This document shows positions 2 to 64,000 of a stretch of DNA of 64,000 nt, piece after piece. The notes under the pieces are model-generated. The model did not search any database. It was not told the DNA's origin and worked only from the letters and a program-made list of their open reading frames with translations. This DNA is from an uncultured Acidimicrobiales bacterium. Lineage in GTDB: Bacteria > Actinomycetota > Acidimicrobiia > Acidimicrobiales > Bin134. The translations under genes and the position numbers were made by a program. Location: contig OX638344.1 of assembly GCA_951813555.1 (NCBI GenBank), forward strand, positions 1,688,990-1,752,989, written 5' to 3'. Each line of letters starts with the position of its first letter. The first letter of the stretch is position 1.

Positions 2-532
2 GCCGCCTACGTGGCCGGCACGTCCGGTGAAGTGGAGACGAATCGGTTGGGATTGCCACGGCTCACCGACCTCCATCGCATCACCGTGGCGCAGATCGAG
101 GGAGCAATCGAGCGCCAGGGCTTGCCCCAACCCGAGCCAGGCGACGCCCTATGCCTGCGCACTGGATGGATCAGCCTCACCCGGGAAGACCCGGAGCGAT
201 TCAAGGCCTCCTCGCCCGGACCGTGGATTGCGGAGAACAAGTGGCTGGCCTCCCACCGTCCGGCGCTGGTGTCCACCGACAGCTGGATGTGGGGGGTGTT
301 CGACTTCGAGGCCACCGGCGGTTGGGTGTCGGCCGGCCACCAGATCATGCTGGTGAAGGAGGGCATCCGCATGGCTGAGTCGATGAGCTGCGAGGAGGTC
401 GCGGCCGCCGGAGTCGACCGGTTCGTGTTCTGCCACTCGCCGTTTCGGGCTGAGGGCTCTACATCGTGCTCGTCGCCCCCCATGGCGATTGCCAACCCGC
501 CGAGCACCGACCAAGAGGAGGAACCAGAATGA
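2..532 (+). CDS. Cyclase-family (kynurenine-formamidase-like) protein, 5' end cut by window edge
   Basis: The frame of ORF 11..532 stays open back to nt 2. The C-terminal region (HQIMLVKEGIRMAESM...FVFCHSPFRAEG) resembles putative cyclase family tails. It shares a 4-nt ATGA overlap with the next gene. Confidence 0.45.
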   Translation, partial: AAYVAGTSGEVETNRLGLPRLTDLHRITVAQIEGAIERQGLPQPEPGDALCLRTGWISLTREDPERFKASSPGPWIAENKWLASHRPALVSTDSWMWGVFDFEATGGWVSAGHQIMLVKEGIRMAESMSCEEVAAAGVDRFVFCHSPFRAEGSTSCSSPPMAIANPPSTDQEEEPE

Positions 533-1383
533 GCATTTTCGACGGATCGCCCTTGGCTGGCAAGGTGGCCTTGGTCACAGGGGCCAGTCGGGGCATCGGC
601 AAGGGATGCGCCTTGGAGCTGGCCGCCGCCGGGGCGACTGTCTATGTTACCGGGCGCACCACCGGTGCCGGCCAGCACCCGCTGCCCGGCACGGTGGGGG
701 CTACCGCAGAGGAGATCGAGGCTGCGGGTGGTTCCGCGGTCGCGGTGGCCTGCGACCACCGCGACGATGACGCGGTGCGGGCGGTATTCGACCGGATCGA
801 CGAAGATCAGGGTCGCCTCGATGTATTGGTGAACAATGCCTTTGCCATTCCCGACGAGCTGACCGCCATGCTGCCCTTTTGGGATGTGCCCATCTCCAAC
901 TGGGACGACATGATGGACGTGGGCACCCGCTCGGCCTATGTGGCCTCGGTGCTGGCCGCCCCGGTGATGATCGGCCAAGGCGACGGGCTGATCGCCAACA
1001 TCAGCTCCTCAGGGGCGGTCGAATACGCCTGGCATGTGGCCTATGGGGTGGGTAAGTGCGCCCTAGACCGCATGACCGCCGATTGTGCCCGCGAGCTCCG
1101 GGACTCAGGAGTGTCGATGGTTTCGGTTTGGCCCGGGTTCGTGCGCACCGAGCGCATCGACGTGGCCGTCGATTCTGGGGTTGAACTGCCGCCGAGCTTG
1201 GACCTGTCGGCCGCCGAATCGCCCCGGTTCACCGGTCGGGCGGTAGCTGCTCTCGCCGTCGACGCCGACCGGTCCCGCTTCACCGGTCAAGCGGTCTCGG
1301 CGCGAGAAATGGCCGATTCCTACGAGTTCACCGACGTCGACGGCCGCTTGCCCGCCGGCCCCCTCCACGATCGCACCGGCTAG
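529..1383 (+). CDS. Short-chain dehydrogenase/reductase (SDR)
   Basis: Carries LVTGASRGIGKG (TGxxxGxG), NNAF and YGVGK (YxxxK). The internal ATG at 529 is preferred over the long ORF start at 466. Confidence 0.8.
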   Translation: MSIFDGSPLAGKVALVTGASRGIGKGCALELAAAGATVYVTGRTTGAGQHPLPGTVGATAEEIEAAGGSAVAVACDHRDDDAVRAVFDRIDEDQGRLDVLVNNAFAIPDELTAMLPFWDVPISNWDDMMDVGTRSAYVASVLAAPVMIGQGDGLIANISSSGAVEYAWHVAYGVGKCALDRMTADCARELRDSGVSMVSVWPGFVRTERIDVAVDSGVELPPSLDLSAAESPRFTGRAVAALAVDADRSRFTGQAVSAREMADSYEFTDVDGRLPAGPLHDRTG

Positions 1384-1399
1384 CCGGAGGGAGCGACCG

Positions 1400-2527
1400 A
1401 TGACCGCTGTTGAACCGTTCGCCATCGAGGTGCCCGATGAGGTGCTCGATGAGCTGCATCGTCGCTTGGACGCCACCCGGTGGTTCGATCCATTACCCGG
1501 GGTCGGGTGGGACGAGGGCACCGATCTGGACTACCTCAAGGAGCTGTGCCGCTATTGGCGCCACGACTACGACTGGCGGGCCGTTGAAGCCCAGCTCAAC
1601 CAATTTCCCCAGTACACCACCACCATCGACAACCAAAGGCTGCACTTCATCCACGCCCGAAGCCGCAACTCCGATGCCATGGCCCTGGTCATCCACCACG
1701 GCTGGCCGGGGTCGATCACCGAATTCGCCAAGGTGATCGAGCCGCTTCGGGAGCACTTCCACGTGGTGTGCCCGTCGCTGCCCGGCTACGGCTTCTCGGG
1801 CCCCACGTCGGAATCGGGCTGGACGCCCCGGCGCATGGCCGCGGGCTCGCTGGAGCTGATGAGCCGGCTCGGCTATGAGCAGTTCGGCGCCCAGGGCGGG
1901 GACTGGGGGGCGATGGTCACTGCCCAGATGGCCCTGCAAGCTCCCGAGCGAGTGATCGGCATCCACTTGAACTTGGCTATCGCTCCTGAGCCCCCGCCGG
2001 AAGCGGTGCGCGAGCTCACCGACGAGGAGAAGGCCGACCGGGCCAAAGGCCATGCCAGCAACCGGGTGGAGCGGGGCTACCGGGAGCAGCAGGCCACCCG
2101 CCCGCAGTCGCTGTCGGTGGGCCTCAACGACTCCCCGGCCGGGCTGGCTGCCTGGATCGTGGAGAAATTCCTGGTGTGGAGCGACATCGGCCCCGATAAC
2201 GACATCGAGGCCAGCTTCACCAAAGACGAACTGCTCACCAACGTGATGGTCTACTGGGTGACCGGCACCATCGCCTCGGCCAACCGGCTGTACTACGAGA
2301 CCCGCGTCGGGGGTCGGGGTTCCTCGGCCCCGGACCGGCGGGTGGAGGTGCCCACCGCCTATGCCCGGTTCCCCGGCGACGGCATCCGCCCAGCCCGGCC
2401 CTGGGTGGAGTACTGGTACAACATCGTCCGCTGGACCGAGATGCCCCGCGGCGGCCACTTCGCCTCCCTCGAGGCCCCCGACCTGTACATCGATGACGTG
2501 GTGGACTATTTCGGCTCTTTGGCCTGA
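1400..2527 (+). CDS. Epoxide hydrolase (alpha/beta hydrolase with EH N-terminal domain)
   Basis: The N-terminus FAIEVPDEVLDELHRRLDATRW is typical of the EH N-domain. An HGWPGS oxyanion motif is present. Length is 375 aa. Confidence 0.8.
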   Translation: MTAVEPFAIEVPDEVLDELHRRLDATRWFDPLPGVGWDEGTDLDYLKELCRYWRHDYDWRAVEAQLNQFPQYTTTIDNQRLHFIHARSRNSDAMALVIHHGWPGSITEFAKVIEPLREHFHVVCPSLPGYGFSGPTSESGWTPRRMAAGSLELMSRLGYEQFGAQGGDWGAMVTAQMALQAPERVIGIHLNLAIAPEPPPEAVRELTDEEKADRAKGHASNRVERGYREQQATRPQSLSVGLNDSPAGLAAWIVEKFLVWSDIGPDNDIEASFTKDELLTNVMVYWVTGTIASANRLYYETRVGGRGSSAPDRRVEVPTAYARFPGDGIRPARPWVEYWYNIVRWTEMPRGGHFASLEAPDLYIDDVVDYFGSLA

Positions 2528-2548
2528 TCCCCTCTGGCCTGAGCCTGT

Positions 2549-3586
2549 TTGCTTTGGGAGCGGCTACTGGGGTGTGGTGAACTTGCCGCCGTGCCCCAGT
2601 TGCATGACGTTGACTACACCCTCGAGTATCCCTACACCCGCACCACCGGGCCGGTCATCGGTCCGTTTCTGACCGGTTTGCGCGACGGGCGCATCCTCGG
2701 ACAGCGGTGCGGCGACCGGGTGCTGTGCCCGCCCATGGAGTTCGATCCGGACACCTCCGCCACCCTGGAGCCCGACCTCGTGGAGGTCGGCCCCGGCGGG
2801 GAGGTGGTCAATTGGACGTGGGTGGCCGAGCCCTCGGCCAAGCACCCCTTCGACCGGCCCTTCGGCTTCACCTTCATCAAGCTGGACGGAGCCGACACCG
2901 CCCTCGTGCATGCGGTGGACACCGGGGGCGACCCCGAGGCCATGAGCACCGGCATGAGGGTGCGGGCCCAATTCGCCACCGAGCGACACGGCTCCATCGC
3001 CGATGTGTACTTCGTGCCCGAGGCCGATGCCGGCGACCAGGTGATCGAGCCGGGCGATGAGCCGGTGGCCATCACCGAGCACCTCATCGGCCTGCGCATC
3101 AACGAGCCGCTCTACCCCCATCGGGCCCGGTTCGCCCAAGGGCTGCTGGACGGCAAGATCATCGGCCAGCGCAGCCCGGTCACCGGCAAGGTGTACGTGC
3201 CCGGCCGGGGCTACGACAACATGTCTCGGGTGCTGATGAGCGAAGCCGACGAGGTTGTGGTGTCCGACGTCGGCACCGTGGTGGCGTTCACCGAGCTGAA
3301 CCCGGTGCAGTACTACGGCCAAACTGAGACCGAGCCCTACGTGCGGTGCTCCATCCTGTTCGACGGGACCGACCAGCCGGTGATCGGCATCGACATCCGT
3401 GACATGACGGTGGACGAGATGCGGGTGGGCATGAGGATGCGCTGCATCTGGCGTGATCCCGAAGAGCGGTCGGTGGAGGACATCGACAACCGCTACGGCA
3501 ACATTCCCGAGGCGGTGTACGCCCGGTTCGAGCCCACCGGCGAACCCGACTTGCCCGCCGACGACCTCAAGGAGCACTCATGGTAA
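2549..3586 (+). CDS. Tandem (fused) DUF35 OB-fold/Zn-ribbon protein, partner of thiolase-fold Ltp proteins
   Basis: Two DUF35-like halves are present (LEYPYTRTTGPVIGPFLTGLRDGRILGQRC... and ...FAQGLLDGKIIGQRSPVTGKVYVP). It is paralogous to the split genes at 37700..38736. The true start is probably GTG 2591 or TTG 2600. Confidence 0.7.
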   Translation: MLWERLLGCGELAAVPQLHDVDYTLEYPYTRTTGPVIGPFLTGLRDGRILGQRCGDRVLCPPMEFDPDTSATLEPDLVEVGPGGEVVNWTWVAEPSAKHPFDRPFGFTFIKLDGADTALVHAVDTGGDPEAMSTGMRVRAQFATERHGSIADVYFVPEADAGDQVIEPGDEPVAITEHLIGLRINEPLYPHRARFAQGLLDGKIIGQRSPVTGKVYVPGRGYDNMSRVLMSEADEVVVSDVGTVVAFTELNPVQYYGQTETEPYVRCSILFDGTDQPVIGIDIRDMTVDEMRVGMRMRCIWRDPEERSVEDIDNRYGNIPEAVYARFEPTGEPDLPADDLKEHSW

Positions 3587-4647
3587 GTCTCGCCGAAGAC
3601 GTAGCCATCGTGGCGTTTGAGCAAACCCCTTCTCACGCCCACTTCAACGACAGCGAGCCGGCCATGATCATGCCGTGCGTGAACTCGGTGATCGAGCAGG
3701 TGGGCATAGACCGCCACGACATCGACTTCACCATTGCCGGGAGCTGCGACTACCTGTCGGGGATGCCCTTCGCCTTCGTCATGAACATCGACGCGGTGGG
3801 GGCGTGGCCGCCGGTGTATGAGAGCCATGTGGAGATGGACGGCGCCTGGGCCCTGTTCGAGGGGTTCGTGCGGCTCCAGTCGGGCGACATCGACACCGTG
3901 CTGGTATCGGGCTCGGGCAAGTGCTCGCCGGGCAGCTACCGGGAGGCGTTCTCGCTCCAGACCGACCCCTACGTGCACGCCCCCATTGGATTGGACCCCC
4001 GGACCCAGGCCGGGTTCCAGGCCCAAGCTCTCATCGCCGCGGGCAAGGCCACCGAGCGGGATTTCGCCGAGGTGGTGTCCCGCAGCCACGGCAACGCCAA
4101 GAACAACCCCTATGCCCAGCTCAGCGGCGACCTGTCGGTGGACGAGCTGCTGGCCGAGCCCTACGTGCAGCAGCCGCTGCGCCGCCTCGACTGCCCGCCG
4201 ACCAGCGACGGGGCCGCGGCCATGATTATCGCCCGGGCCGACAAGGCTCGGGAGCTGTGTGACAGCCCGGTGTGGATCCGGGCCATCGACCACCGCATCG
4301 ACTCGCACCACCCCACGTTGCGGGATCTCACCGACTCGTCGTCGGTGCGCATTGCCGCCGAGCGGGTGGGCCTCCACGACGGGCCGGTGGACATCGCCGA
4401 GCTGACCGTCACCTACAGCCCCGAGGAGATCATCCTGCAAGACGCCCTCGGGCTCAACGGCGGCACCACGGTGAATCCGTCGGGCGGGCCGCTTACCGGC
4501 AGCCCGTTCATGGCGGTGGGCCTCACTCGGGTGATCGAGTTGGCCCGGGCCATTCGCAACGGCGACGGACGCCGGGGGGTGGCCCACGCATCCAGCGGCC
4601 CGGCTTTGCAGCAGAACTTGCTGTGTGTTCTGGAAGGAGAAAGCTGA
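3580..4647 (+). CDS. Thiolase-fold lipid-transfer-protein (Ltp)-like protein, subunit 1
   Basis: 355 aa with thiolase-like motifs (NPSGGPLTGSPFMAVG). It overlaps the DUF35 gene by 7 nt. It is a paralog of 38733..39791. Confidence 0.7.
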   Translation: MVSLAEDVAIVAFEQTPSHAHFNDSEPAMIMPCVNSVIEQVGIDRHDIDFTIAGSCDYLSGMPFAFVMNIDAVGAWPPVYESHVEMDGAWALFEGFVRLQSGDIDTVLVSGSGKCSPGSYREAFSLQTDPYVHAPIGLDPRTQAGFQAQALIAAGKATERDFAEVVSRSHGNAKNNPYAQLSGDLSVDELLAEPYVQQPLRRLDCPPTSDGAAAMIIARADKARELCDSPVWIRAIDHRIDSHHPTLRDLTDSSSVRIAAERVGLHDGPVDIAELTVTYSPEEIILQDALGLNGGTTVNPSGGPLTGSPFMAVGLTRVIELARAIRNGDGRRGVAHASSGPALQQNLLCVLEGES

Positions 4648-51634: not shown

Positions 51635-54148
51635 CTACTTTGACAACGCTTCCTGGACTCTTCTTCGCAGTTGGACGTTGATCTCTTGGCGTTCTAGGTG
51701 TTGGGCGACGATTAGGGGGCCTTGGGGAACGGGGTGGGCTTCTAGGAAGGTCTGGACATCGGTGGCCAGTTCGGGGGTGGACAGGGCGCTGATGCCGCCG
51801 AGCATTCGGGGGACGATGGCGGAGGGGAGGCGTTGGTTGATGTCGTCCCAGTGCTGGGCGATATGCGCCCAGGCTTGGGGGCCGAGGTCGCGGTTTTCCA
51901 GGCATCCCCGCAGCACGAAACCGGCGTCTTGGCTGCGCACGGTGCCGTCGAGGGTGGCGGCCAGAGTGCGGTCCATGAGCTGGGGATCGTCGAAGGTGGT
52001 GAGCGCCATCAGATAGCGCAGTTCGAGCTGCGGCGTGGGGGCGTTGCCGAAGCGCTGGCGGATGTCTTCGTAGTCCGCCTCGTCACCGGTGGCGGCCACA
52101 ACGGCGATGGCGGCCGCGGCCAGGGCAGGGTCGACGCCCTCGGCGGCCATAAGCGCCCGGCACCGGGCGATGGCCTCGGCGTCGTTGCCCCCCACGGCCC
52201 GGGTACGTGCGAGCACGCCCCGCAATTCGCCGACACGGTCGTCCTCGCCGGCGACCGGCTCCCAGCCCACCTGGCCCCAGGCCGGGCCGACCATGTCCCT
52301 GACTCGGGCCTGGAGTCCAGCCCGACCGTCGTCGGGAACCATGTGGTCGAGAGTGCCCAGTGTGCCGGCCAGCCGGCGCCACACAGCCAAGTCGTCTTCG
52401 GTGGCGGCCATGCGCTCGACGAACGCCAGGTAGTCGGCCAAACTTTGCCGGTTGGCCACCGTCAGGGCCCATTGGTCGTCCACCAACACGTATCGCTGGA
52501 GCGGGTCCAGATCGGGGCCGATGTCCAGCAGCCTGTCCAGCAATCCACCTTGGTAGGCCACTCGGTAGAAGCCGTCGGCGGTCGGGTTGACCATGACCCA
52601 AGCAGGGTCGTCAGCATCGAGGGCGACCGGGTCTTCCAGCACCAGCCGCTCGGCGTGTTCTCCGGTGCCGGTGCCCACGGCGGCCACCACCGGAACCTGC
52701 CAGCGGGCGTCGTCGGGCTGCCCGTCGTAGCGGAATCGCTCCTGGCTGAGTGTGATCGTGCCGGTGTCGTCGCCCGCAGCAGTCACCACGGGGTGGCCGC
52801 CCTGGAAGATCCATGAGTCCATGACGTCGCGGGCGGGCTCGCCGGTGGACTCGGCCAGGGCATCCCACAGGTCGTGGGTCTCGGTGTTGGCGTAGGAGTG
52901 GCGCTGGAGATAATGGCGGACCCCGTCGCGGAAGGCCTCGGCGCCCAGGAATTGCTCCAGCATCCGCACCGCGGCCGCGCCCTTCTCATAGGTGAGCAGG
53001 TCGTACATGCCCTCGGCGTCGGCAGGGGAAACCACCGGATACTCGATGGCCCGCGTGGCGGCCAGGGCGTCCACGTCGAAGGCCGCCGCCCGGGACAGCC
53101 CGAACGCCAGCCAGCGCTTCCAGTCGGGGCGGTAGGCGTCCACCGCCAGCATCTCGCAGAACGTGGCGAAGGCCTCCTTGAGCCAGATGCCGTTCCACCA
53201 CTTCATGGTCACCAGGTTCCCGAACCACATGTGGGCCAGCTCGTGGGCGATCACATCCACCGCGGTCTGACGCTCTTGCTGGGTGGAGCTGTCGGGGTCG
53301 AGCAGCAGCAGGATCTCCCGGAAGGTGACGCACCCCATGTTCTCCATGGCCCCGAAGGCGAAGTCGGGTATGGCCACCAGATCGAGCTTGTCGCCGGGGT
53401 AGTCGATGGCGAAGTAGTCCTCGAAGAAGCTGAGGCAAAACGCGCCGGCGTCGAGGGCGAACTCGGTGAGGTGGCCCTTGCCGACAGGATGGACGACGCG
53501 CAGCGGCGTGCCGTTCACATCCACCGATTCGGTAACCTCCAGCGGTCCGACGATGAAGGCCAGCAGGTAAGTGGACATCTTCATGGTGGGGGCGAACGAC
53601 ACCGCCCGGCGCCCGTCGCCGGTGGGCTGGGAATCCATCTCGGCCCCCGAGGACACGGCCATCAGATCGTCGGGCACCACCAGGGTCACCTCGAAAGTCG
53701 CCTTGAGGTCGGGCTCGTCCCAGCATGGAAACGCCCGACGGGCGTTGGTGGACTCGAACTGCGTGGTGGCGATTACCCGCTCATCGCCGTCTTTATCGGT
53801 GAACGTAGACCGGTAGAACCCCCGAAGCTGATCGTTGAGAGTGCCGGAAAAGGTCAAGTTCAGCCGGGCTGGCCCTGGCGAGACAGGCTCGCCCAGCCTC
53901 AGCGCCGCCCGCTCGTGCTCGTCGTCGTAGTCGATCCCGGCTAGCGCCACCCCGCCGAGGTCCCCACCGGCAATCTCCAGCTCTGCCGCGTTGAGCACGA
54001 TCTCGTCCACCGGCTCCAGCACTTCAAGATCCACGCCCAGCGTCCCCGCAAAGATGAACCCGTCCAGATCAGGCTCCAACCGCAGCTCATACCGCCGCGG
54101 CACCACCGTCCTAGGCAGCCGGTACGGGTTCACTGGGGACTCGGCCAT
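51635..54148 (-). CDS. pepN: Aminopeptidase N (M1 family)
   Basis: GAMEN is present, together with HELAHMWFGNLVTMKWWNGIWLKEAFA (HExxH-x18-E). Length is 837 aa. Confidence 0.92.
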   Translation of the reverse strand: MAESPVNPYRLPRTVVPRRYELRLEPDLDGFIFAGTLGVDLEVLEPVDEIVLNAAELEIAGGDLGGVALAGIDYDDEHERAALRLGEPVSPGPARLNLTFSGTLNDQLRGFYRSTFTDKDGDERVIATTQFESTNARRAFPCWDEPDLKATFEVTLVVPDDLMAVSSGAEMDSQPTGDGRRAVSFAPTMKMSTYLLAFIVGPLEVTESVDVNGTPLRVVHPVGKGHLTEFALDAGAFCLSFFEDYFAIDYPGDKLDLVAIPDFAFGAMENMGCVTFREILLLLDPDSSTQQERQTAVDVIAHELAHMWFGNLVTMKWWNGIWLKEAFATFCEMLAVDAYRPDWKRWLAFGLSRAAAFDVDALAATRAIEYPVVSPADAEGMYDLLTYEKGAAAVRMLEQFLGAEAFRDGVRHYLQRHSYANTETHDLWDALAESTGEPARDVMDSWIFQGGHPVVTAAGDDTGTITLSQERFRYDGQPDDARWQVPVVAAVGTGTGEHAERLVLEDPVALDADDPAWVMVNPTADGFYRVAYQGGLLDRLLDIGPDLDPLQRYVLVDDQWALTVANRQSLADYLAFVERMAATEDDLAVWRRLAGTLGTLDHMVPDDGRAGLQARVRDMVGPAWGQVGWEPVAGEDDRVGELRGVLARTRAVGGNDAEAIARCRALMAAEGVDPALAAAAIAVVAATGDEADYEDIRQRFGNAPTPQLELRYLMALTTFDDPQLMDRTLAATLDGTVRSQDAGFVLRGCLENRDLGPQAWAHIAQHWDDINQRLPSAIVPRMLGGISALSTPELATDVQTFLEAHPVPQGPLIVAQHLERQEINVQLRRRVQEALSK

Positions 54149-54394: not shown

Positions 54395-54551
54395 TGCTTG
54401 CAGCCTACACACGCCTCTCACCCATTCATTGGGGTGTACGCGCAAGAGCCCGGCCACTCACCGTCCGGAGAGGTACCGGGCTCCACTTCATCGGGCTACT
54501 GCCCTCAGCAGAACAGACGGCAGTGAGTCGTGGGTTTGCTAGAACCAGGTG

Positions 54552-55247
54552 ATGGCGAATTTTGTGTTGGTTCATGGGGCGGCTCATGGGGCGTGGTGTT
54601 GGGAGCGGCTAGTACCGATTCTTGAGGCGAGCTCCCACGCGGAGAAGGTGATTGCCATCGACTTGGTAGGGCACGGGGAACGGCTGAAGGAGAAGCCGCT
54701 GGATCAGATCTGCCTTGATGACTATGCCGACGACGTGGTCCGGGAGATCGAGGGCCGCGATCTGCACGATGTGGTGTTGGTGGGGCACTCATTGGCCGGG
54801 ATCACGCTGCCACCGGCCGCCCACCGCCTGGTGGGCCGGTTGCGGCGGCTGGTGTATCTGTCGACAACGAATCCGCCGGTGGGGCAGTCGGTGGAGGATC
54901 GGATGAACGACCCGTTGTCGCCGATCTCTCGGGAAGTGGACTTCGAGACAATGTTCTGCAACGACCTCGATGCCGAGACCTCAAACTGGCTGCTGTCCTG
55001 CCTCGGTCCTGAGCCACCCGGCCCGATGGCCGAGAAGGTAACGGTGGCCTCTGGGCCTCCCGGCATCCCCTCCACCTACATCCTGTTGGAGAAAGACGAG
55101 GCCCTCCCGCCCGCCTACCAGCGCGAGGAGGCCCGTACCGCCCAAGTCGACGATATCGTCACCCTCGACGCCGGCCACAGCGCCTTCGCCTCCCGTCCCC
55201 AAGAACTGTCCGACCTCCTGCTGCGGGTGGCCCATCGCGGGAACTAG
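54552..55247 (+). CDS. Alpha/beta hydrolase (esterase, methylesterase-like)
   Basis: MANFVLVHGAAHGAWCWERLVPIL is a typical N-terminus, and GHSLAG is the nucleophile elbow (GxSxG). Confidence 0.8.
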   Translation: MANFVLVHGAAHGAWCWERLVPILEASSHAEKVIAIDLVGHGERLKEKPLDQICLDDYADDVVREIEGRDLHDVVLVGHSLAGITLPPAAHRLVGRLRRLVYLSTTNPPVGQSVEDRMNDPLSPISREVDFETMFCNDLDAETSNWLLSCLGPEPPGPMAEKVTVASGPPGIPSTYILLEKDEALPPAYQREEARTAQVDDIVTLDAGHSAFASRPQELSDLLLRVAHRGN

Positions 55248-55294
55248 ACGTTCTCGGGCTACGTCAAATGGACGTGGCAACGAATGAGAGGCAC

Positions 55295-55792
55295 ATGACC
55301 ATGAAGCATCTACGCGGGTCTGGCCTCCCAACTGCGGTTCGAATTCCACTCGTTGGTGTGATGACCATGGCCATTCTGTTGAGCGCCTGCGGTGGCAATT
55401 CCACCCCGGCCGACATAGACAACGGGCCAGCGCCGACAGCGGCTGCACCCGAGGCAACCCCCGTCAATAGCAGGCTGACCGGCGACATTACCATCGAGGG
55501 CGCCTTCGAACTGTCGCACATTCCCTCGTCGCGGGTAGTGGTGCGGCTTGAGGACATCTCTATGCTCGACGTTCCGTCGGTGGTCCTTGCGGAGCAGGTG
55601 CTTACAGGGGTTACCACGCTCCCACTGCAATATGTGCTGTCGTGGACGGGCGAGTTGGATCCCGAGTTCATGTACGCCGTGAGCGCGACCATCTATGGAA
55701 ACGATGGTGAACTCCTTTTCTGGACCGACACGAGCTATCCGGTCGAACCCGGTGACATCAAGGTGGACTTCTTCGTCGTAACCGCCTCTTGA
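55295..55792 (+). CDS. YbaY-like lipoprotein
   Basis: The lipobox is MAILLSAC. The downstream pattern ...VVVRLEDISMLDVPSVVLAEQV...LPLQYVL... resembles YbaY/YscW-type lipoproteins. The start is uncertain (55268, 55295 or 55301). Confidence 0.55.
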   Translation: MTMKHLRGSGLPTAVRIPLVGVMTMAILLSACGGNSTPADIDNGPAPTAAAPEATPVNSRLTGDITIEGAFELSHIPSSRVVVRLEDISMLDVPSVVLAEQVLTGVTTLPLQYVLSWTGELDPEFMYAVSATIYGNDGELLFWTDTSYPVEPGDIKVDFFVVTAS

Positions 55793-55871: not shown

Positions 55872-56108
55872 ATGGGAGTACAGATCACCATTCGGGAGGT
55901 TCCTGAGGAAGTTCGGAATGTGCTAGCGGCCCGGGCCGCTCTGAAGCGGCAGTCGATGCAGGAGTACTTGCGGGGAGAGCTGGTGCGCATAGCGGCAAGG
56001 CCCACTTTGGATACCTGGATCGAAGAGGTCCGTCGTCGAAAGGACGCCGCGGGTACCAGCATCGCGACCTCAGCGATCCTTGATGCTCGGGACGCCGACC
56101 GCCGGTGA
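55872..56108 (+). CDS. vapB: Ribbon-helix-helix antitoxin (VapB/FitA-like)
   Basis: MGVQITIREVPEEVRNVLAARAALKRQSMQEYLRGELVRIA is a typical FitA-like antitoxin sequence. Confidence 0.8.
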   Translation: MGVQITIREVPEEVRNVLAARAALKRQSMQEYLRGELVRIAARPTLDTWIEEVRRRKDAAGTSIATSAILDARDADRR

Positions 56109-56503
56109 GCGTGGTCATAGATGCGTCGGTGCTGGTGGCGGCACTGGTCGATTCCGACCAAGACGGCCCGTGGGCTGAAGCGGCAATCGCACAAGGACAA
56201 CTGGCCGCGCCGGAAATGGTCTTGGCCGAGGCGACCAACATCTTGCGCCGAATGGATCTGTCCGGTCAGGTATCGAGGTTGGAGGCCACGGCTTCCTTTC
56301 GCGATCTGCTGCGCCTAGATGTCGAGCTCTACCCGTTTACTCCGCTGGCCGAGCGAGTCTGGGAGCTGAGGGGCAACGTGACTAGCTATGACGCTTGGTA
56401 TGTGGCGCTGGCGGAGGCGCTCAACAATCCACTCTTTACACTCGACCGCAGGCTGAGCAAGGCCAGCGGGGTCCAATGCGAGGTGGTTGTCCCGCCTCAT
56501 TAG
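56105..56503 (+). CDS. vapC: PIN-domain toxin VapC
   Basis: A GTGA overlap joins it to vapB. VVIDASVLVAAL... and ...SYDAWYVALAEALNNPLFTLDRRL are PIN motifs. Confidence 0.85.
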   Translation: MSVVIDASVLVAALVDSDQDGPWAEAAIAQGQLAAPEMVLAEATNILRRMDLSGQVSRLEATASFRDLLRLDVELYPFTPLAERVWELRGNVTSYDAWYVALAEALNNPLFTLDRRLSKASGVQCEVVVPPH

Positions 56504-56557: not shown

Positions 56558-59392
56558 TCAGTTGGGGACTTGGCCGCTGCGGTCTATGGCGCGGGTGTCT
56601 AGGCCAAGGTAGCTGGTGATGACGGCGGCGTTGGTTCGGACTTCGGCGGGTGTTCCCTGGGCGATGATCGACCCGGCTTCGAGGCAGTAGACGCGGTCGC
56701 TGATCGACATGATGAGCGGCATGTCGTGTTCGACGATGAGCATGGCGGCGTGGAGATGGCGACGGATTTCAACGATGAGGGGGCTGAAGGCCTCGGCCTC
56801 TCGCTGCGCTACTCCGGCGGTGGGCTCATCGAGGCACAGCATTTGGGCGTTGAGGGCGAGGAGCCCGGCGAGTTCGACGATTCGGCGTGTGCCGGTGGAG
56901 AGGTCGGCGATGTGGCTGTCGGCGTAGCGGCCCAACCCGAGAAAGTCGATCAGTTCGTCGACCTGGGCCTGAGCGGAGCGCCTGCCTCGCCCGGTCTGGT
57001 TGGCGGTCACGAGTTGTCGGGAACCATTGGACGGTGCCGATGTGGCTGCCACCAGGACGGTTTCTCGCACGGTGAGCTCGGGAAACAGGGTTGCGGCTTG
57101 GAATGTCCGGCCCAGACCATTTCGGGAGCGTTCGGCGGGCTTGAGGCGGTGGATCGGCGAGCCGTAGAGCTCAACGCGGCCTTTGGAGGGGACGAAGCCG
57201 CCGATGGCGTTTATCAGGGTTGACTTGCCGGCACCGTTGGAGCCGATGAGCCCCACGATCTCACCGGGGGCCACTTCGATATGGGCGTTGTCAACCGCCA
57301 GTCGGCCGCCGAAGCGCACGGTAATCCCGATTGCCCGCAGCGCCGGTTCGGAGGTGTCGGGCACCGCGGCCGGAACTGCGAGTGCCGTGGGCACGGAGTG
57401 GGTTTGTTTGGCCGCGGGTGGTGGTCGGCGGGCCTCCAGCCAGGCCACGATCCGGTCGCGGGCGGAGTAGGCGATCTGAGCGAGGCCGCTGGGGAAGTAC
57501 AAAAGGAGGATCAGCAGGCCGACGCCCGAGGTGAACAGGGGGATCAGGCGGTTAGTAGGAGCGAAGGCGGGCAGGCCGATCACCCAAAGCGCGCCGAACA
57601 CCGGCCCGATGGTGGCGCCGATGCCGCCGATGATGGCCATGGAGATGAGCCGCAACGACTCCCCGGTCCCGAAGAAGCGACCGGTCAGGGGGACCTCGTG
57701 TATCACTCCGGCCAAGAGGCCTCCCCCAAGCCCGGCCACCGCGCCGGCCAACACGAAGGCTCCCAGCTTGGTACGAGCCGGGCGAACCCCGTAGGCCGCG
57801 GCGGCGTCGGCATTGTCCCGCAGAGCCCGGATGGCCCGGCCAAAGCGGCTTCGGTGAATGCGGGCAACGGCGATCAGCACCACCACCAAGACCCCGAGCA
57901 GCAGCCAGTAGTAGGTGCGCTGACTGTCGAGGTCGAGCCCGAACACCTGGCCCCGGCGCAAGGAGACTGAAGTGGTGTTTCCGTCGCTGAAGATGGGCCG
58001 GCGGAAGAGGTATTCCTCGGTGGCCAGCGCGAGAACGAACGTGGCCACGGCGAGCAGCAGGCCGCGCACTCGCAGCGCTCCCATGCCCACCATCCCGGCG
58101 AACGCGGCGGCAACCACGGCTCCGAGGGCAACCGCGGCCGCGAAGGGGATGCCGCCGGCTTCGAAGCTGATCAGCCGGTTGTCGCCCCAGCCGATGTCCA
58201 TTTGGATGCCCCGCTGGAATGAAGCTGCTGCCACGGCACCAATTCCGGCAAAGGCCATCTGGCCCAGCGATAGCTGTCCCGCCCATCCGGTGATGATGGC
58301 CACCGACACCGCGCAGATCCCAAAGGCCAAGATGGTGGCGTAGGTGATCTGCCGTGACGGGGTGGAAACGACAATGGGCAACAGCACCGCGGTCAACCCA
58401 GCCAATCCCAGGGCCAGCTTGCCCAGGTGGCGGATCCACCAGATGGACAGGAGGTGCTTGGGAATTGGGCGGATCTTGGGAGCAAACGAGTACCGCCCTG
58501 CAGCGTCGTCGTCGCGGCGGCGCTGCACCGCTACCGCTACGAGCACGCCGATCAGCAGGACGAACTCAAAGAGCCCGCCTTCAACAGGATAGTTGAACTT
58601 GACCAGCGAGAACGTGACGCCGACCACCACCCCCCCGGCCAGAGCGAGCGGGAACGATCGCATCCGGGCGATGACCGCGGCGGCCAGGGAGTTGGCCATG
58701 GTGGTGAGGCCCACTGTCTCCAGTCCGCTCACGCTGCGGTCGGCAGAGAGCAGTATCACCGCGATGGTGGACACCACTCCGGCGATCACCCAGATGGTGA
58801 GCGATACCCGTTTCGGCTTGATGCCCGAGACTCGCGACAAATCGGGGTTGGCCGCGGTGGCCTGCACCGTTCGGCCGTAGGGCGTGCGGTCCAGCAGCAC
58901 GCCAAGCGCAATCGCCACCAGGGGGGCGACGATGAGCGCGCTGAGCTGCGGGCCGGTGACGAAGAGCCCGGCCACATCGGTCAAGATCGTGTCGATGATG
59001 ACGGGATAGCGGGTGCCGATGCCGCCGCCGACGTCGGGGTAGGCCAACAGGATGCCCTGAGCAAGCTGGGCGACCCCGATGGTGGCCACCAAGAGGATCA
59101 CCCTCGGCGCGGTGAACAGCCGGCGTACCACGCCGATCTCCACCACGGCGGCGAAGAGAGCGCCCACCGCGATGGCGGTGAGTGCCGCTATCCAGAAGGG
59201 GACGTCCCAGCGCAGGGCCAACAGGGCCAACAGACCGGCACCGGGCAGCCCCATGTTTCCAGCGGCGAAATTGATGACCCGGGAGGAGCGGAATATCAGA
59301 ACGATGGCCATGGCCAGCATCCCGTACACCAGACCGTTCACCGCCCCGTCGAAGATGAGCTGGCGGTTGGCTTCGAGGAAACCCAGCGCCAT
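56558..59392 (-). CDS. Branched-chain-amino-acid-type ABC transporter, fused permease-permease-ATPase (LivH-LivM-LivG-like)
   Basis: The protein is 944 aa. The N-terminus is LivH-like (NGLVYGMLAMAIVLIFRSSRVINFAAGNMG). The middle is a second hydrophobic, LivM-like domain. The C-terminus carries Walker A GLIGSNGAGKST, signature LSTGTRR and Walker B LCLDEP. Confidence 0.8.
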   Translation of the reverse strand: MALGFLEANRQLIFDGAVNGLVYGMLAMAIVLIFRSSRVINFAAGNMGLPGAGLLALLALRWDVPFWIAALTAIAVGALFAAVVEIGVVRRLFTAPRVILLVATIGVAQLAQGILLAYPDVGGGIGTRYPVIIDTILTDVAGLFVTGPQLSALIVAPLVAIALGVLLDRTPYGRTVQATAANPDLSRVSGIKPKRVSLTIWVIAGVVSTIAVILLSADRSVSGLETVGLTTMANSLAAAVIARMRSFPLALAGGVVVGVTFSLVKFNYPVEGGLFEFVLLIGVLVAVAVQRRRDDDAAGRYSFAPKIRPIPKHLLSIWWIRHLGKLALGLAGLTAVLLPIVVSTPSRQITYATILAFGICAVSVAIITGWAGQLSLGQMAFAGIGAVAAASFQRGIQMDIGWGDNRLISFEAGGIPFAAAVALGAVVAAAFAGMVGMGALRVRGLLLAVATFVLALATEEYLFRRPIFSDGNTTSVSLRRGQVFGLDLDSQRTYYWLLLGVLVVVLIAVARIHRSRFGRAIRALRDNADAAAAYGVRPARTKLGAFVLAGAVAGLGGGLLAGVIHEVPLTGRFFGTGESLRLISMAIIGGIGATIGPVFGALWVIGLPAFAPTNRLIPLFTSGVGLLILLLYFPSGLAQIAYSARDRIVAWLEARRPPPAAKQTHSVPTALAVPAAVPDTSEPALRAIGITVRFGGRLAVDNAHIEVAPGEIVGLIGSNGAGKSTLINAIGGFVPSKGRVELYGSPIHRLKPAERSRNGLGRTFQAATLFPELTVRETVLVAATSAPSNGSRQLVTANQTGRGRRSAQAQVDELIDFLGLGRYADSHIADLSTGTRRIVELAGLLALNAQMLCLDEPTAGVAQREAEAFSPLIVEIRRHLHAAMLIVEHDMPLIMSISDRVYCLEAGSIIAQGTPAEVRTNAAVITSYLGLDTRAIDRSGQVPN

Positions 59393-61569
59393 CAGCCCCC
59401 CTCGTCGCCCAGGAAAACGGCTCTGACCAGGTCGTCGCGGTCAGCCAGTTCAGAGGCTGGTCCTTGGAACCGCACCTGACCCTTTTCGATGAACACGGCC
59501 CGGTCGGCCAATTCCAGGGCGATGTTGAGCGACTGCTCGACGATGACAATGGTCTGCCCGGTCGATTGGAGCCGCTCGATGTGGCCCATGAGCTCGGCCA
59601 CCGCGGTCGGAGCGAGGCCGAGGGACAGTTCGTCGATCAGGAGCACTTCGGGCTGGCACAGCAGCGTTCGGGCCAGGGCGAGCATCTGTTGTTGGCCGCC
59701 CGACAAGGCGTCGGCTCGGTCGTCGAGGCGGGAGCGGAGTTCGGGGAACAACTCAAGGGCGTGCTCGATTCGGCGATGCCGTTCGGACTTGTCGTCTCGG
59801 AGCTGATAGGTCCCCATCTCCAGGTTGTGGCGCACGCTGAGCGGCGCCCATACGCCGCTTCCCCCCAGCAGGGTCTGTATTCCCATCTCCGTTCGCTGCT
59901 CGGGGGTGGAGAAGGTGATGGTGCGGCCGTTCAGACGTACCACTCCCCGCTCCGGAGTGCCGAGGCCGGCGATCACCCGCAGAATGGTCGACTTTCCGGC
60001 GCCGTTGGTGCCCAGCAGGGCCAGGGTCTCGCCCCTTCGGACTTCGAAACCGACGTCGAAGAGGACCTGGACGTTGCCATAGCTGAAGTCGATGTCGGCC
60101 AGTTGCAGGGCGGGGATGTGTTCGGGATCTTCTTGTTGGCGGTTGTGTTCGGCCTGCTCCTCGAGTATCTCGGCCACGTTGCGAGACAAGTCGCGCCGTA
60201 TGTGGCGGGCACCGTTCAACATGAAGGCCCCGCCGACGATGGTGGAGGGCAGTCCCAGCACCAGGATCGTGGTCTTCGGGCCGCTGGCATCGACCACCAT
60301 GGCCGACAGCAGGCCGCCGCCGGCCGCGCCGATGAAGAAGATGTACAACGTGGACAGCGCCGAGCCGATGCCCCGAAGCCGATAGGGGACGACGGCCTGC
60401 ATGAGGGGCCCGACCATGGCGAAGGCCGCGAACATCATCAGCGAGCCGGGAACGTCCAACACGGCAAAGAGCCACGGGTTGGGCATGTTGAACTGGACGG
60501 GCAACAACAGTGCGGAGGGCAAGATGAGCGCGCCGATCAGCCCCATCGCCCGGGTTGGGTTCTGGCGGTAGAGGCGATCGAACTGTCGCCCGACAAACGG
60601 CATGATGGCGATGACCCCGACCCCGGACGCGGTGGTGAGGGTGCCGCGGCCCAACGGGCCCAATCCGTACTCGTCCTCAAGGAACAAAGAGGTGAGCACT
60701 GGCCGGCTGAACAGTCCGAAGCCCAGCGCGGCGAACCCGAGGAGCACCGTGCGCAGGGTCGCCACCTTGTTGAGCCGGGCGAACGCCGCTTCTAGGGAGA
60801 CAGGGGCAGAATCGCCCGCGTCGCCGGCCTGGCCTAAGACATCGGCCTTCTCCCATTGGCCTCGCACCGGCTCGGGGAGCCGGAACGCGGCCACGGCCAC
60901 AACGGCCACCGGGATCCACAGGGTGTAGTAGGTCCAGCGCCAGCTGACGAAGGCGGCGATGGCCCCGACCAGCACGGGGCTGATGATGCCCACCGACCGT
61001 CCGACCATGATGGTGAGCGACGCGATACGGCCCCGAACCCCGATGGGGTACTGGTCGGCGATCAGGGAGCTGTGGACAGGCAGGGTGTTGGACTTGGAGA
61101 TCCCGGTTCCCAGCCGAGCGAGGAAGAACACCGCAACATGGCGGGCCAGGCCGGACAGCAGCGAGAACAGGCCGAAGGCGAGACTGGCCGCCCCGATGAC
61201 CGGCCCCCGGCGAAATCGGTCGGCCAGCCAGCCCATGGGCAGTGCGCCGAGGAACACAAACGACACCGAGGCGGCACCCAAGAAAACGATGACCCCATCG
61301 CCCACGCCGAAGCTGTCTCGGATCTCGGGGGCGAGAACCGACAGTGCAGCCGATTCGAGCTCGTCGAGGCTGTTGAGGATCAACAGGACGAGGAATGTCG
61401 CTATTCCGCCTTTGGCCAGCCCTTCCCGCAGCGACATTTGCTCGCCGCCCACACCGGGAAGGACGTGGTCGGGAAATATCACCTCATCGTCGGCGCCGGT
61501 CTGATCTGTCTGACTGTCAAGCACCCGGCGAGACAGGGCGCCGGCGTCGTTGCTGGCGGCGTCGGTCAT
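59392..61569 (-). CDS. MFS-like membrane domain fused to LivF-like ABC ATPase
   Basis: The protein is 725 aa. The N-terminal 450 aa or so are hydrophobic and carry the MFS-type motif GWLADRFRRGPV. The C-terminus carries Walker A LLGTNGAGKST, signature LSGGQQQ and Walker B LLIDELS. A TGATG overlap joins it to the downstream gene. Confidence 0.75.
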   Translation of the reverse strand: MTDAASNDAGALSRRVLDSQTDQTGADDEVIFPDHVLPGVGGEQMSLREGLAKGGIATFLVLLILNSLDELESAALSVLAPEIRDSFGVGDGVIVFLGAASVSFVFLGALPMGWLADRFRRGPVIGAASLAFGLFSLLSGLARHVAVFFLARLGTGISKSNTLPVHSSLIADQYPIGVRGRIASLTIMVGRSVGIISPVLVGAIAAFVSWRWTYYTLWIPVAVVAVAAFRLPEPVRGQWEKADVLGQAGDAGDSAPVSLEAAFARLNKVATLRTVLLGFAALGFGLFSRPVLTSLFLEDEYGLGPLGRGTLTTASGVGVIAIMPFVGRQFDRLYRQNPTRAMGLIGALILPSALLLPVQFNMPNPWLFAVLDVPGSLMMFAAFAMVGPLMQAVVPYRLRGIGSALSTLYIFFIGAAGGGLLSAMVVDASGPKTTILVLGLPSTIVGGAFMLNGARHIRRDLSRNVAEILEEQAEHNRQQEDPEHIPALQLADIDFSYGNVQVLFDVGFEVRRGETLALLGTNGAGKSTILRVIAGLGTPERGVVRLNGRTITFSTPEQRTEMGIQTLLGGSGVWAPLSVRHNLEMGTYQLRDDKSERHRRIEHALELFPELRSRLDDRADALSGGQQQMLALARTLLCQPEVLLIDELSLGLAPTAVAELMGHIERLQSTGQTIVIVEQSLNIALELADRAVFIEKGQVRFQGPASELADRDDLVRAVFLGDEGG

Positions 61570-62684: not shown

Positions 62685-64000
62685 ATGCGCTTACGACTCA
62701 TAGGAATCATCACCGTTCTGTTCGTTTTGGCATCGGCGTGCGGGGGCGGAGACTCTGAACCGGAAATCGACGGCGGCGCTGCGGAGCCTCAGACTCAGCC
62801 AGTCGAAGATGGGCCTGAGGAATCGCAGTCGGCGACAAGGGTCCCGGAGCCCGCAGACGAGCCGGAAGAGGCTGACGCGGAGGCCACGGCGCCGGAACCG
62901 GAGACACCTGAGCCCGCAGACGAGCAGGCTGAGGCGCCGGAGACCGAGGAAGAGCCAGCCGAGCCTGAGCCGATTGTGCTGACCGACTCGTTCCGGGGCG
63001 TGACCTCTGAGGCGATCAAGATCGGCATCGTGATCATCGATCTCTCCGTCATCGGCCGCAGCAACGGCGACGTGGAAGCCAAGTGGGAGGCCGTCATCGA
63101 CGAGGTCAACGCCAGCGGTGGGGTTCTCGGTCGCCGACTTGAGCCGGTCATGGTGGGGTATTCGCCCCTAGGGGATGTCGAGTCAGAGGCGGCCTGCGTG
63201 CAGTTGACGCAAGATGAGGAAGTGTTTGCGGCCATGGGTCCGCTGCTCACCAATCTGACCTGTTTCACCGACGTGAACGAAACGATCTTTATCAACACCT
63301 TCGGGGTCAGCCAAGAGGATTTCGACCGGTCCAAGGCTGTGGCCATCGGCCCAGGCGCGCTCCCTGCCCGCGGCGCGGCAATCAGCGTCCAGTTGCTGAT
63401 CGATGCCGGGATCCTGGATGGTCCGGTGGCGGTGCATGCCGCGGCGGACACGGGAAGTGAGCGGGATCACTACATCAACGCCCTGGTGGCCGCCGGAGTC
63501 GATGTGGTGTCAGAGACCGAATCCACCGACAGTGGGGGTGACATTGCCGCCTCAGATGCCGAGATGCAGGCCTTTGCCCAGCGGTGGCAGGCCGACGGGG
63601 CCGAGGTAATCCTCGCGGTGGGAATCGGTTCGGCTCTCAACGTGGTCGCTGGCATTGATCGGAGTCCATATCGCCCCAGGTTGGTGGCAACCAGAGGAAG
63701 CGGCGTCGACCCCGAACTTTATCGCGACCTCGGCTACACGACCGATGCCCTAGAAGGTGCCTATGCGCTCGGTTCAGTGGGATTCGAAGATCTCGCCAAG
63801 GCGGGGGATCCAAGCGTTGTTTCCTGCATCGACCGCTTCGAAGCGGCGTCGGACGAAGTTGTCAATGTCGACCCCGAGGGTGATGAACCGGTGAATCTGA
63901 ACACCACCATTTGGGCGTGCCAAGCTGTGGAGATATTCACGCAGATTGCTACGGCTGCCGGGCCAGATCTCACCAACGATTCGTTTAGGGCGGCCGCCGA
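62685..64000 (+). CDS. ABC transporter substrate-binding lipoprotein (Leu/Ile/Val-binding, Peripla_BP_6-like), 3' end cut by window edge
   Basis: It is absent from the ORF track because no stop falls within the window. My translation reads MRLRLIGIITVLFVLASAC (lipobox), then an acidic Pro/Glu linker, then IKIGIVIIDLS...VNASGGVLGRRLEPV. GGAGGG lies 9 nt upstream of the ATG. Confidence 0.75.
   Translation, partial: MRLRLIGIITVLFVLASACGGGDSEPEIDGGAAEPQTQPVEDGPEESQSATRVPEPADEPEEADAEATAPEPETPEPADEQAEAPETEEEPAEPEPIVLTDSFRGVTSEAIKIGIVIIDLSVIGRSNGDVEAKWEAVIDEVNASGGVLGRRLEPVMVGYSPLGDVESEAACVQLTQDEEVFAAMGPLLTNLTCFTDVNETIFINTFGVSQEDFDRSKAVAIGPGALPARGAAISVQLLIDAGILDGPVAVHAAADTGSERDHYINALVAAGVDVVSETESTDSGGDIAASDAEMQAFAQRWQADGAEVILAVGIGSALNVVAGIDRSPYRPRLVATRGSGVDPELYRDLGYTTDALEGAYALGSVGFEDLAKAGDPSVVSCIDRFEAASDEVVNVDPEGDEPVNLNTTIWACQAVEIFTQIATAAGPDLTNDSFRAAA

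Follow-up and report, generated by a model that had tools for sequence, protein, structure and literature searches.

A major facilitator domain fused to a LivF-like ABC ATPase: a conserved architecture encoded with a LivH-LivM-LivG fusion in actinobacteria

The window analysed here is a 64,000-nucleotide stretch of contig OX638344.1 (assembly GCA_951813555.1), from an uncultured Acidimicrobiales bacterium. It encodes a 725-amino-acid (aa) protein in which a complete membrane domain of the major facilitator superfamily (MFS) is joined to an ATP-binding cassette (ABC) ATPase of the LivF kind, an architecture that is real, widespread, conserved and uncharacterised. Immediately downstream lies the gene for a 944-aa triple fusion of LivH, LivM and LivG, and our analysis shows, or at least strongly implies, that the two proteins are the two chains of one binding-protein-dependent ABC importer of the LivFGHM/HAAT type. 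We consider it very probable that this complex includes the MFS domain as an integral subunit. More tentatively, we propose a role for the domain as an obligate third module in the membrane, one that may change conformation in connection with the ATPase cycle and would provide either a second generic pathway or a gate.

The fusion had been pointed out in an earlier note, made from the DNA alone, whose author knew of no characterised example. The literature that we searched likewise yielded none, and nothing in it describes an MFS-LivF fusion; the architecture has already been machine-annotated in public databases.

The fusion gene and its product

The MFS-LivF gene is an uninterrupted open reading frame (ORF) with an ATG start (Table 1). 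As the earlier note had it, an ORF with MFS-like and LivF-like parts occupies positions 59392-61569, and all four motifs quoted from it are there: GWLADRFRRGPV (aa 113), GTNGAGKST (aa 520), LSGGQQQ (aa 622) and LLIDELS (aa 643). Both parts have Pfam scores far beyond chance. From the N- to the C-terminus the protein consists of an extension, the MFS domain, a linker helix and a LivF/UrtE-like ABC ATPase. The AlphaFold2 (AF2) model of the full 725 aa contains 12 long helices, a central loop, the linker helix and a typical ATPase domain, with a predicted local distance difference test (pLDDT) score of 82.6 and a predicted template-modelling score (pTM) of 0.76. The first 29 residues are modelled with low pLDDT. 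Within the N-terminal extension P38 and G39 are invariant (alignment A1), and the LLPGVG motif is missing from the most distant family members.

The stop codon of the MFS-LivF gene overlaps the start of the 944-aa ORF in the sequence TGATG, with the MFS-LivF gene upstream and the 944-aa gene downstream, which confirms in sequence the coupling that had been claimed for the pair. An Rfam scan of the entire window detected neither a riboswitch nor any other RNA family, and a scan for promoters and terminators returned nothing above chance.

The N-terminal domain is an MFS member

By every structural and sequence criterion applied, the N-terminal domain is a member of the MFS that stands outside all curated subfamilies. 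Pfam MFS_1 (PF07690, clan CL0015) matches aa 66-405 (E 4.4e-29; 101.9 bits, gathering cut-off 33.4), and Sugar_tr scores 24.8 bits against 22.3. DSSP assignment of the AF2 models gives 12 long helices, with the central loop at aa 229-269. Lysine and arginine residues of the domain number 23 in the predicted cytoplasmic loops and 4 in the outer loops, and the predicted topology therefore has both termini inside, placing the ATPase in the cytoplasm.

With the full-length model as query, the ATPase domain dominated the Foldseek matches, which were uninformative for the N-terminal fold, so the search was rerun with a model of the MFS part alone. The best 50 matches in the PDB were then all MFS proteins. 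Spns1 (9BOI, E 2.7e-10, TM-score 0.77) led the list, and Spns2, DgoT, a bacterial Spinster homologue, NorA and MdfA were among the others, this named group having TM-scores of 0.70-0.77. By NCBIfam the domain stood closest to the EmrB and aromatic-acid:H+ symporter families and scored below the cut-off of every curated MFS subfamily: the best match was TIGR00895 (63.9 bits against 418.6), with TIGR00711 EmrB at 53 against 230. The possibility raised in the earlier note, that the domain might have a non-MFS fold and that an ordinary ABC transmembrane (TM) domain had been taken for an MFS one, is ruled out by the Pfam MFS_1 match and the MFS-only Foldseek matches, and the 12 TM helices with their charge bias likewise point to the MFS.

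The domain retains the residues expected of a carrier. TM1 begins in the manner of the DHA families ('LDxxxxxVLAPxIxxxFGVS') and keeps an acidic residue, D69, while TM4 keeps the motif-B arginine, R152. Motif A in loop 2-3 reads G113-W-L-A-D117-R118-F-R-R121 and is echoed in loop 8-9 by G327-R-x-x-D331-R-x-x-R335, and is thus found in both halves. All of the sequence hallmarks of a working MFS carrier are in place, and the nearest relatives are stand-alone carriers, whether judged by NCBIfam (EmrB, aromatic-acid:H+ symporter) or by fold (Spns, NorA). Both observations would suit an independent passenger, that is, a carrier powered by the proton-motive force (perhaps a DHA/Spinster-type exporter) whose fusion to LivF would do no more than secure co-expression, 1:1 stoichiometry and co-localisation with the importer. 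Such a Rosetta-stone fusion would unite two transporters that are functionally related and mechanically separate. We regard this explanation as somewhat unlikely, for reasons that lie in the linker, the cassette and its conservation.

The linker and the LivF-like ATPase

The segment that connects TM12 to the ATPase is mainly a single helix of about 24 residues. D460 is invariant in the linker and E470, E474 and R477 are near-invariant; together with P482, these residues make up a conserved fusion junction. A conserved helix with such residues, above all D460 and R477, is no floppy tether, and this argues against a mechanically separate carrier.

Pfam ABC_tran matches the ATPase domain over aa 505-647 (E 9.5e-28; 98 bits, cut-off 25). 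The Walker A (GTNGAGKST), signature (LSGGQQQ) and Walker B (LLIDELS) motifs, the last with the catalytic E647, are all invariant in alignment A1, as are E678, Q679 and S680 at the H-loop position, where the domain reads VEQS. The glutamine at this position we take to be typical of LivF. Judged by these motifs, the LivF-type ATPase is catalytically complete. The top NCBIfam matches for aa 488-721 were UrtE (E 3.3e-52) and LivF (E 4.3e-46), both falling short of the equivalog cut-offs (LivF 157.3 bits against 441; UrtE 177.2 against 285.8), and the best Foldseek match was the LivF-like structure 1JI0 (38% identity, TM-score 0.90 on the target). The domain is of the same kind as LivF and UrtE, with orthology established to neither.

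A conserved cassette, probably for one importer

The first homology search returned 1905 proteins at E <= 1e-10, of which 120 matches were listed. All 120 of these listed homologues carry both MFS_1 and ABC_tran, nearly all at full length (~700-770 aa), with identities down to 56%. Among the public labels of such proteins are NCBI's 'MFS transporter [Candidatus Poriferisocius sp.]', plain 'ATP-binding protein' and a JGI name with both COGs. An exhaustive search using only the MFS part brought out three architectures, namely single-ATPase fusions (698-752 aa, identity down to 28%), rarer MFS proteins with two ATPase domains (903 and 1017 aa), and stand-alone MFS proteins of ~460 aa at ~30% identity. 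Two of the stand-alone relatives, at ~30% identity, proved to be ordinary MFS genes with no Liv genes adjoining, and so provide no evidence for an unfused precursor complex.

In a species-level scan, with one genome per species, at least 233 stretches encode a relative. Most are metagenome-assembled genomes (MAGs) of Acidimicrobiia from Poriferisocius, Aldehydirespiratoraceae and Ilumatobacteraceae; the cultured Embleya scabrispora DSM 41855 and another Embleya are represented as well. Eighty of these stretches and three loci retrieved earlier were compared, giving a set of 83 that includes complete chromosomes, isolate genomes and MAGs. MFS and LivF share one ORF in all 83, with LivH-LivM-LivG directly after; locus L060 is a partial exception, its partner being split over more than one ORF. 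In 79 of the 83 loci the closest in-frame start codon of the partner gene falls between -4 and +11 nucleotides from the MFS-LivF stop, and 30 of these 79 have the 1-nucleotide stop/start overlap seen in the window. Two more distant loci, one of them from the cultured isolate Ilumatobacter fluminis (WP_166657336.1), have the same gene pair with 4-nucleotide overlaps and an MFS identity of 28-32%. A homologue of the binding protein is found within 65 of the 83 loci.

A frameshift artefact had been named in the earlier note as what would undo the fusion. We regard a sequencing frameshift, a misassembly or the reading of two genes as one as having a negligible probability: the frame is unbroken in the window, in the 83 independent loci and in the two distant ones, both domains occur in every homologue among the matches listed, and the junction residues are conserved. 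Frameshift and misassembly were accordingly rejected on the continuous ORFs of the loci and homologues.

Some genomes carry two paralogous MFS-LivF/LivHMG cassettes at ~50-80% identity (L021 and L079 in OZ240616.1; L022 and L041 in JAQWMR01; L065 and L068 in CAZCUD01). The cassette has thus undergone duplication, its copies presumably serving different binding proteins.

The partner ORF has LivG as its best NCBIfam match (194.8 bits), and the two genes jointly encode the HAAT importer set (TC 3.A.1.4): two BPD_transp_2 domains, a LivG-type and a LivF-type ATPase. When the 944-aa sequence was searched against the PDB, the matches were to ATPase domains only, with no solved HAAT permease among them. 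Most of the 83 loci have no matched ORF for LivF alone, and the LivF domain of the fusion must therefore find its ATPase partner in the LivG domain of the other chain. That pairing would bring the fused 12-helix MFS domain into the complex beside LivH and LivM, as a third membrane module.

A shuffled form of the cassette, on two contigs (L084 765-5752 and L087 2-5974), lends further weight to this arrangement. Here LivH-LivM lacks an ATPase and is followed by an MFS-LivF-LivG protein (903 or 1017 aa), so that both ATPases are attached to the MFS chain. The five modules stay together however they are joined, and no other observation speaks as strongly for a single complex; the presence of both ATPases on the MFS domain is hard to reconcile with a carrier that merely travels with LivF. 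Among the roles offered in the earlier note, that of a third TM subunit of the LivHMG complex is thus the best supported, by the invariant synteny, the tight translational coupling and the shuffled variant; the anchor or sensor that it also offered has less support.

Conservation of the MFS part

Over the 61 most distant loci, the median identity to the window protein is 54% for MFS, 66% for LivF, 52% for LivH, 52% for LivM, 61% for LivG and 31% for the binding protein. Constraint on the MFS part thus equals that on the true permease domains. If the domain were a passenger with its own substrate, one would expect it to change along with the binding protein and the neighbouring genes, or to disappear from some lineages, whereas the MFS domain is kept in the 83 cassettes and the two distant ones while the binding protein falls to 31% identity and the contexts differ. 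With binding proteins and neighbourhoods varying and the MFS domain constant, its role is probably generic rather than substrate-specific.

Conservation was scored over 71 non-redundant members at 36-80% identity. Invariant in all 71 are G55, P81, R121, P175, G283, R308, P395, R399, G414 and D460, and D117, R118, D172, R179 and R181 score at least 0.90. Among the regions scored the motif-A loop (loop 2-3) ranks highest at 0.80, followed by loop 4-5 (0.71), loop 10-11 (0.69) and the central loop (0.67). The TM helices score 0.50-0.66, with the minimum in TM10, which is normally a core helix in the MFS.

This pattern bears on a different explanation, in which the MFS domain is no longer capable of transport and has become an accessory to the importer. 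It could be a membrane anchor or scaffold that keeps LivF, the one subunit that would otherwise be soluble, at the membrane next to the LivHMG chain, or a transceptor-like sensor or regulator that responds to the proton-motive force, lipids or a ligand. A cytoplasmic face and central loop that are the most conserved parts (0.67-0.80), a core TM10 that is the least conserved (0.50) and peripheral helices that equal the core ones suit a protein-protein interface better than a substrate pocket, and mildly favour an anchor or sensor; as a test of pocket against interface, helix conservation is suggestive only. The apparent generality of the role, independent of binding protein and gene context, is in keeping with an accessory function too, and the other ATPase is likewise tethered to the membrane through a fusion. 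Set against this, 12 helices with motif A in both halves, the TM1 aspartate and the TM4 arginine go far beyond what an anchor needs. These features are maintained down to 28-36% identity, with no decay of the MFS signatures seen, and we consider the loss of transport to be unlikely.

A possible third membrane module

To account for these observations together, we propose a model that starts from the cytoplasmic C-terminus of the MFS domain, from which the conserved ~24-residue helix carries the ATPase. In working MFS carriers, the motif-A salt-bridge loops, the TM1 acid and the TM4 motif-B arginine govern inward/outward switching and proton coupling. As these switch-control and proton-relay features are kept, and as a conserved rigid helix leads from the domain to the ATPase, we infer that the MFS module would be no dead anchor and may still rock between two states. 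Opening and closing of the LivF-LivG dimer could be relayed by the rigid linker together with the strongly conserved cytoplasmic face. Two membrane modules, LivHM with its binding protein and the MFS domain, would then share a single ATPase engine, and the MFS domain might either offer a second generic pathway or act as a gate that ties ATP turnover to its own state.

Several points weigh against this proposal. The AF2 model of the MFS part alone is of modest quality (pLDDT 69.9, pTM 0.74). Per-helix conservation is nearly flat, peripheral TM3 and TM6 equalling core TM1 and TM4, which is atypical for a substrate-binding carrier. Both the contact of the MFS domain with LivH/LivM and its effect on the ATPase are postulates of the model, and the conserved cytoplasmic loops could be a docking surface instead of a switch. 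Finally, the stand-alone relatives at ~30% identity that occur without Liv neighbours favour a mechanically separate passenger, since they imply that the ancestor was an independent carrier, and the fused copy might still work independently.

The proposal also has a stronger form. In a true ABC-MFS hybrid, the ATP cycle of LivF-LivG would drive or gate the MFS rocker switch beside a classical permease, making this the first such MFS; we think this unlikely. Further still would be an MFS domain powered directly by the LivF-LivG dimer as a primary-active pump, with LivHM as a parallel pathway or as a partner for dimer closing. TM12 is covalently and rigidly joined to the ATPase, the MFS-LivF-LivG variant bears a complete ATPase pair, and the extremely conserved cytoplasmic MFS loops could mimic coupling helices, all of which would be expected of such a pump. 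Yet an ABC-powered MFS is without known precedent, ABC ATPases engage the coupling helices of ABC permeases, and a complete LivH-LivM pair is always co-encoded. This makes a directly ATP-driven MFS highly improbable.

Nothing in these results shows the ATPase energising the MFS domain. As a general premise, that ATPases never energise secondary-transporter folds is too strong: ArsB with ArsA, a non-ABC ATPase, is a textbook counter-example.

Gene neighbourhood and possible cargo

The features of the cassette and its immediate surroundings are collected in Table 1.

Table 1. Features of the MFS-LivF cassette and adjoining genes, with positions in the 64,000-nucleotide window
Feature	Position	Strand	Basis or remarks
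LivH-LivM-LivG triple fusion, 944 aa	56558..59392	(-)	two BPD_transp_2, LivG-like ABC_tran, BCA_ABC_TP_C
MFS-LivF fusion gene, 725 aa	59392..61569, including stop codon	(-)	ORF listing; Pfam MFS_1 and ABC_tran; AF2 model
LivF/UrtE-like ABC ATPase domain, aa 488-725	59395..60108	(-)	Pfam, NCBIfam, Foldseek
Conserved linker, aa 454-487, mainly one long helix, aa 457-480	60109..60210	(-)	DSSP, pLDDT ~80-88, conservation
MFS domain, aa 47-453, 12 TM helices (6+6)	60211..61431	(-)	Pfam, DSSP of AF2 models, Foldseek, topology count, conservation
MFS motif A GWLADRFRRGPV, aa 113-124	61198..61233	(-)	cytoplasmic loop TM2-TM3
N-terminal cytoplasmic extension, aa 1-46	61432..61569	(-)	conserved helix aa 9-24; LLPGVG motif aa 36-41
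GH26-like protein gene, 346 aa	61594..62634	(-)	between fusion and candidate binding-protein genes; PDB sequence match
Candidate substrate-binding lipoprotein	62685..64000, runs off window end	(+)	lipobox signal peptide, weak Peripla_BP_6

The gene that the earlier note had taken for a substrate-binding protein at 62685 is divergent from the fusion gene and encodes a signal peptide with the lipobox LASAC. The Peripla_BP_6 match of this incomplete copy falls below the cut-off (E 3e-5, 24.3 bits against 31.7), the gene lies on the opposite (+) strand, and the 346-aa gene intervenes before the fusion gene. No NCBIfam equivalog matches the candidate. Close relatives have a homologous binding-protein gene at the equivalent position, and precomputed Pfam Peripla_BP_6 matches are present in two of the loci (L001 and L003). 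Between the lipobox and the binding domain of the candidate lies an acidic low-complexity linker of ~80 residues, rich in proline, glutamate and alanine.

The 346-aa gene is co-oriented with MFS-LivF and ends 24 nucleotides upstream of its start; it is probably the first gene of the operon, co-transcribed with MFS-LivF in this lineage. Its product has no Pfam or NCBIfam match. In a PDB sequence search it matched the GH26 beta-1,3-xylanases AlXyn26A (E 9.7e-25) and XYL4, and inspection of the sequence by eye showed no obvious N-terminal signal peptide. This GH26-like neighbour hints at an oligosaccharide-related cargo in this lineage.

Elsewhere the surroundings of the cassette are diverse. Locus L003 (3048-18199) has a rhamnosidase, a GH43 and rhamnose-catabolism-like genes, and settings of this rhamnosidase/GH43 type (L003 and L088, the latter at 478-4307) include aldolase_II/adh_short, FGGY-kinase or sulfatase genes. 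In I. fluminis the neighbours are a rhamnosidase and a sulfatase; in L001, L002 and L089 they are acyl-CoA dehydrogenase, thiolase and ChsH2-type genes, and other cassettes adjoin esterases and integrases. A Pfam census of 101 flanking genes was heterogeneous and revealed no shared pathway. From these contexts, the label 'branched-chain amino acid' is probably wrong for many members, and the cargo seems to change from lineage to lineage, the MFS part remaining constant.

Just past the 3' end of LivHMG, the window contains a convergent gene for a PIN-domain (VapC-like) toxin at 56105-56503 (+). Next to an alpha/beta hydrolase gene (54549-55247, +) lies that of a small lipoprotein-like protein with a YscW domain, of the type III secretion lipoprotein chaperone family (55268-55792, +), which is unusual for actinobacteria. 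An M1-family aminopeptidase of 837 aa, with Peptidase_M1_N, Peptidase_M1 and ERAP1_C domains, is encoded at 51635-54148 (-).

Comparison with known transport systems

The MFS and ABC superfamilies are the two largest groups of transporters and are taught as mechanistically separate, the one using ion gradients and the other ATP. Here, a complete and conserved MFS domain appears to be an obligate covalent part of an ABC importer. If the two are coupled, the system would be a natural one in which to ask whether an ABC motor drives or gates an MFS rocker switch, and would reveal the way in which an ABC importer accommodates a third membrane module. Without coupling, it would still be a clear example of two transport systems locked to each other, with a bearing on nutrient uptake in the abundant marine and sponge-associated Acidimicrobiia. 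The cultured carriers I. fluminis and E. scabrispora make the question directly testable. Our analysis also corrects the annotation of proteins now labelled just 'MFS transporter' or 'ATP-binding protein'.

The closest known systems on the ABC side are LivFGHM with LivJ/K and UrtABCDE (HAAT, TC 3.A.1.4). The window shares with them two BPD_transp_2 domains, a LivG-type ATPase with a BCA_ABC_TP_C tail, a LivF/UrtE-type ATPase with glutamine at the H-loop position and a candidate Peripla_BP_6-type lipoprotein nearby. It differs in having LivH-LivM-LivG as one 944-aa chain and a 12-TM MFS domain on the N-terminus of LivF. In addition, its ATPase scores far below the LivF and UrtE equivalog cut-offs, and the gene contexts suggest cargo beyond amino acids.

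On the MFS side, stand-alone carriers of the Spinster group, the DHA group (EmrB, NorA, MdfA) and the anion:cation symporters (DgoT, PcaK) have the same 12-TM, 6+6 plan, with motif A, its echo and the TM4 arginine. The window MFS differs from them in its conserved cytoplasmic N-terminal extension and central loop, in its fusion to an ABC ATPase, and in always being encoded with an ABC permease.

Three further systems offer partial parallels; to our knowledge none of ArsAB, ECF and LplT-Aas joins an MFS fold to an ABC ATPase. In the ArsB/ArsA arsenite pump, a secondary-carrier fold runs on the membrane potential alone, or as a primary pump once the ATPase is bound. ArsA, however, is no ABC ATPase and ArsB no MFS protein, the two are unfused, and there is no separate ABC permease. 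In ECF transporters, and in LptB2FGC with its LptC, one ABC ATPase pair serves a complex with an extra non-canonical membrane component, but these extras are small S-components or single helices; none of them amounts to a full secondary-transporter fold or shares a chain with the ATPase. LplT-Aas joins an MFS domain to a cytoplasmic nucleotide-using domain of the same pathway. Its partner is an acyltransferase/synthetase that acts on the transported lipid, whereas the partner of the MFS domain described here is a motor subunit of another transporter.

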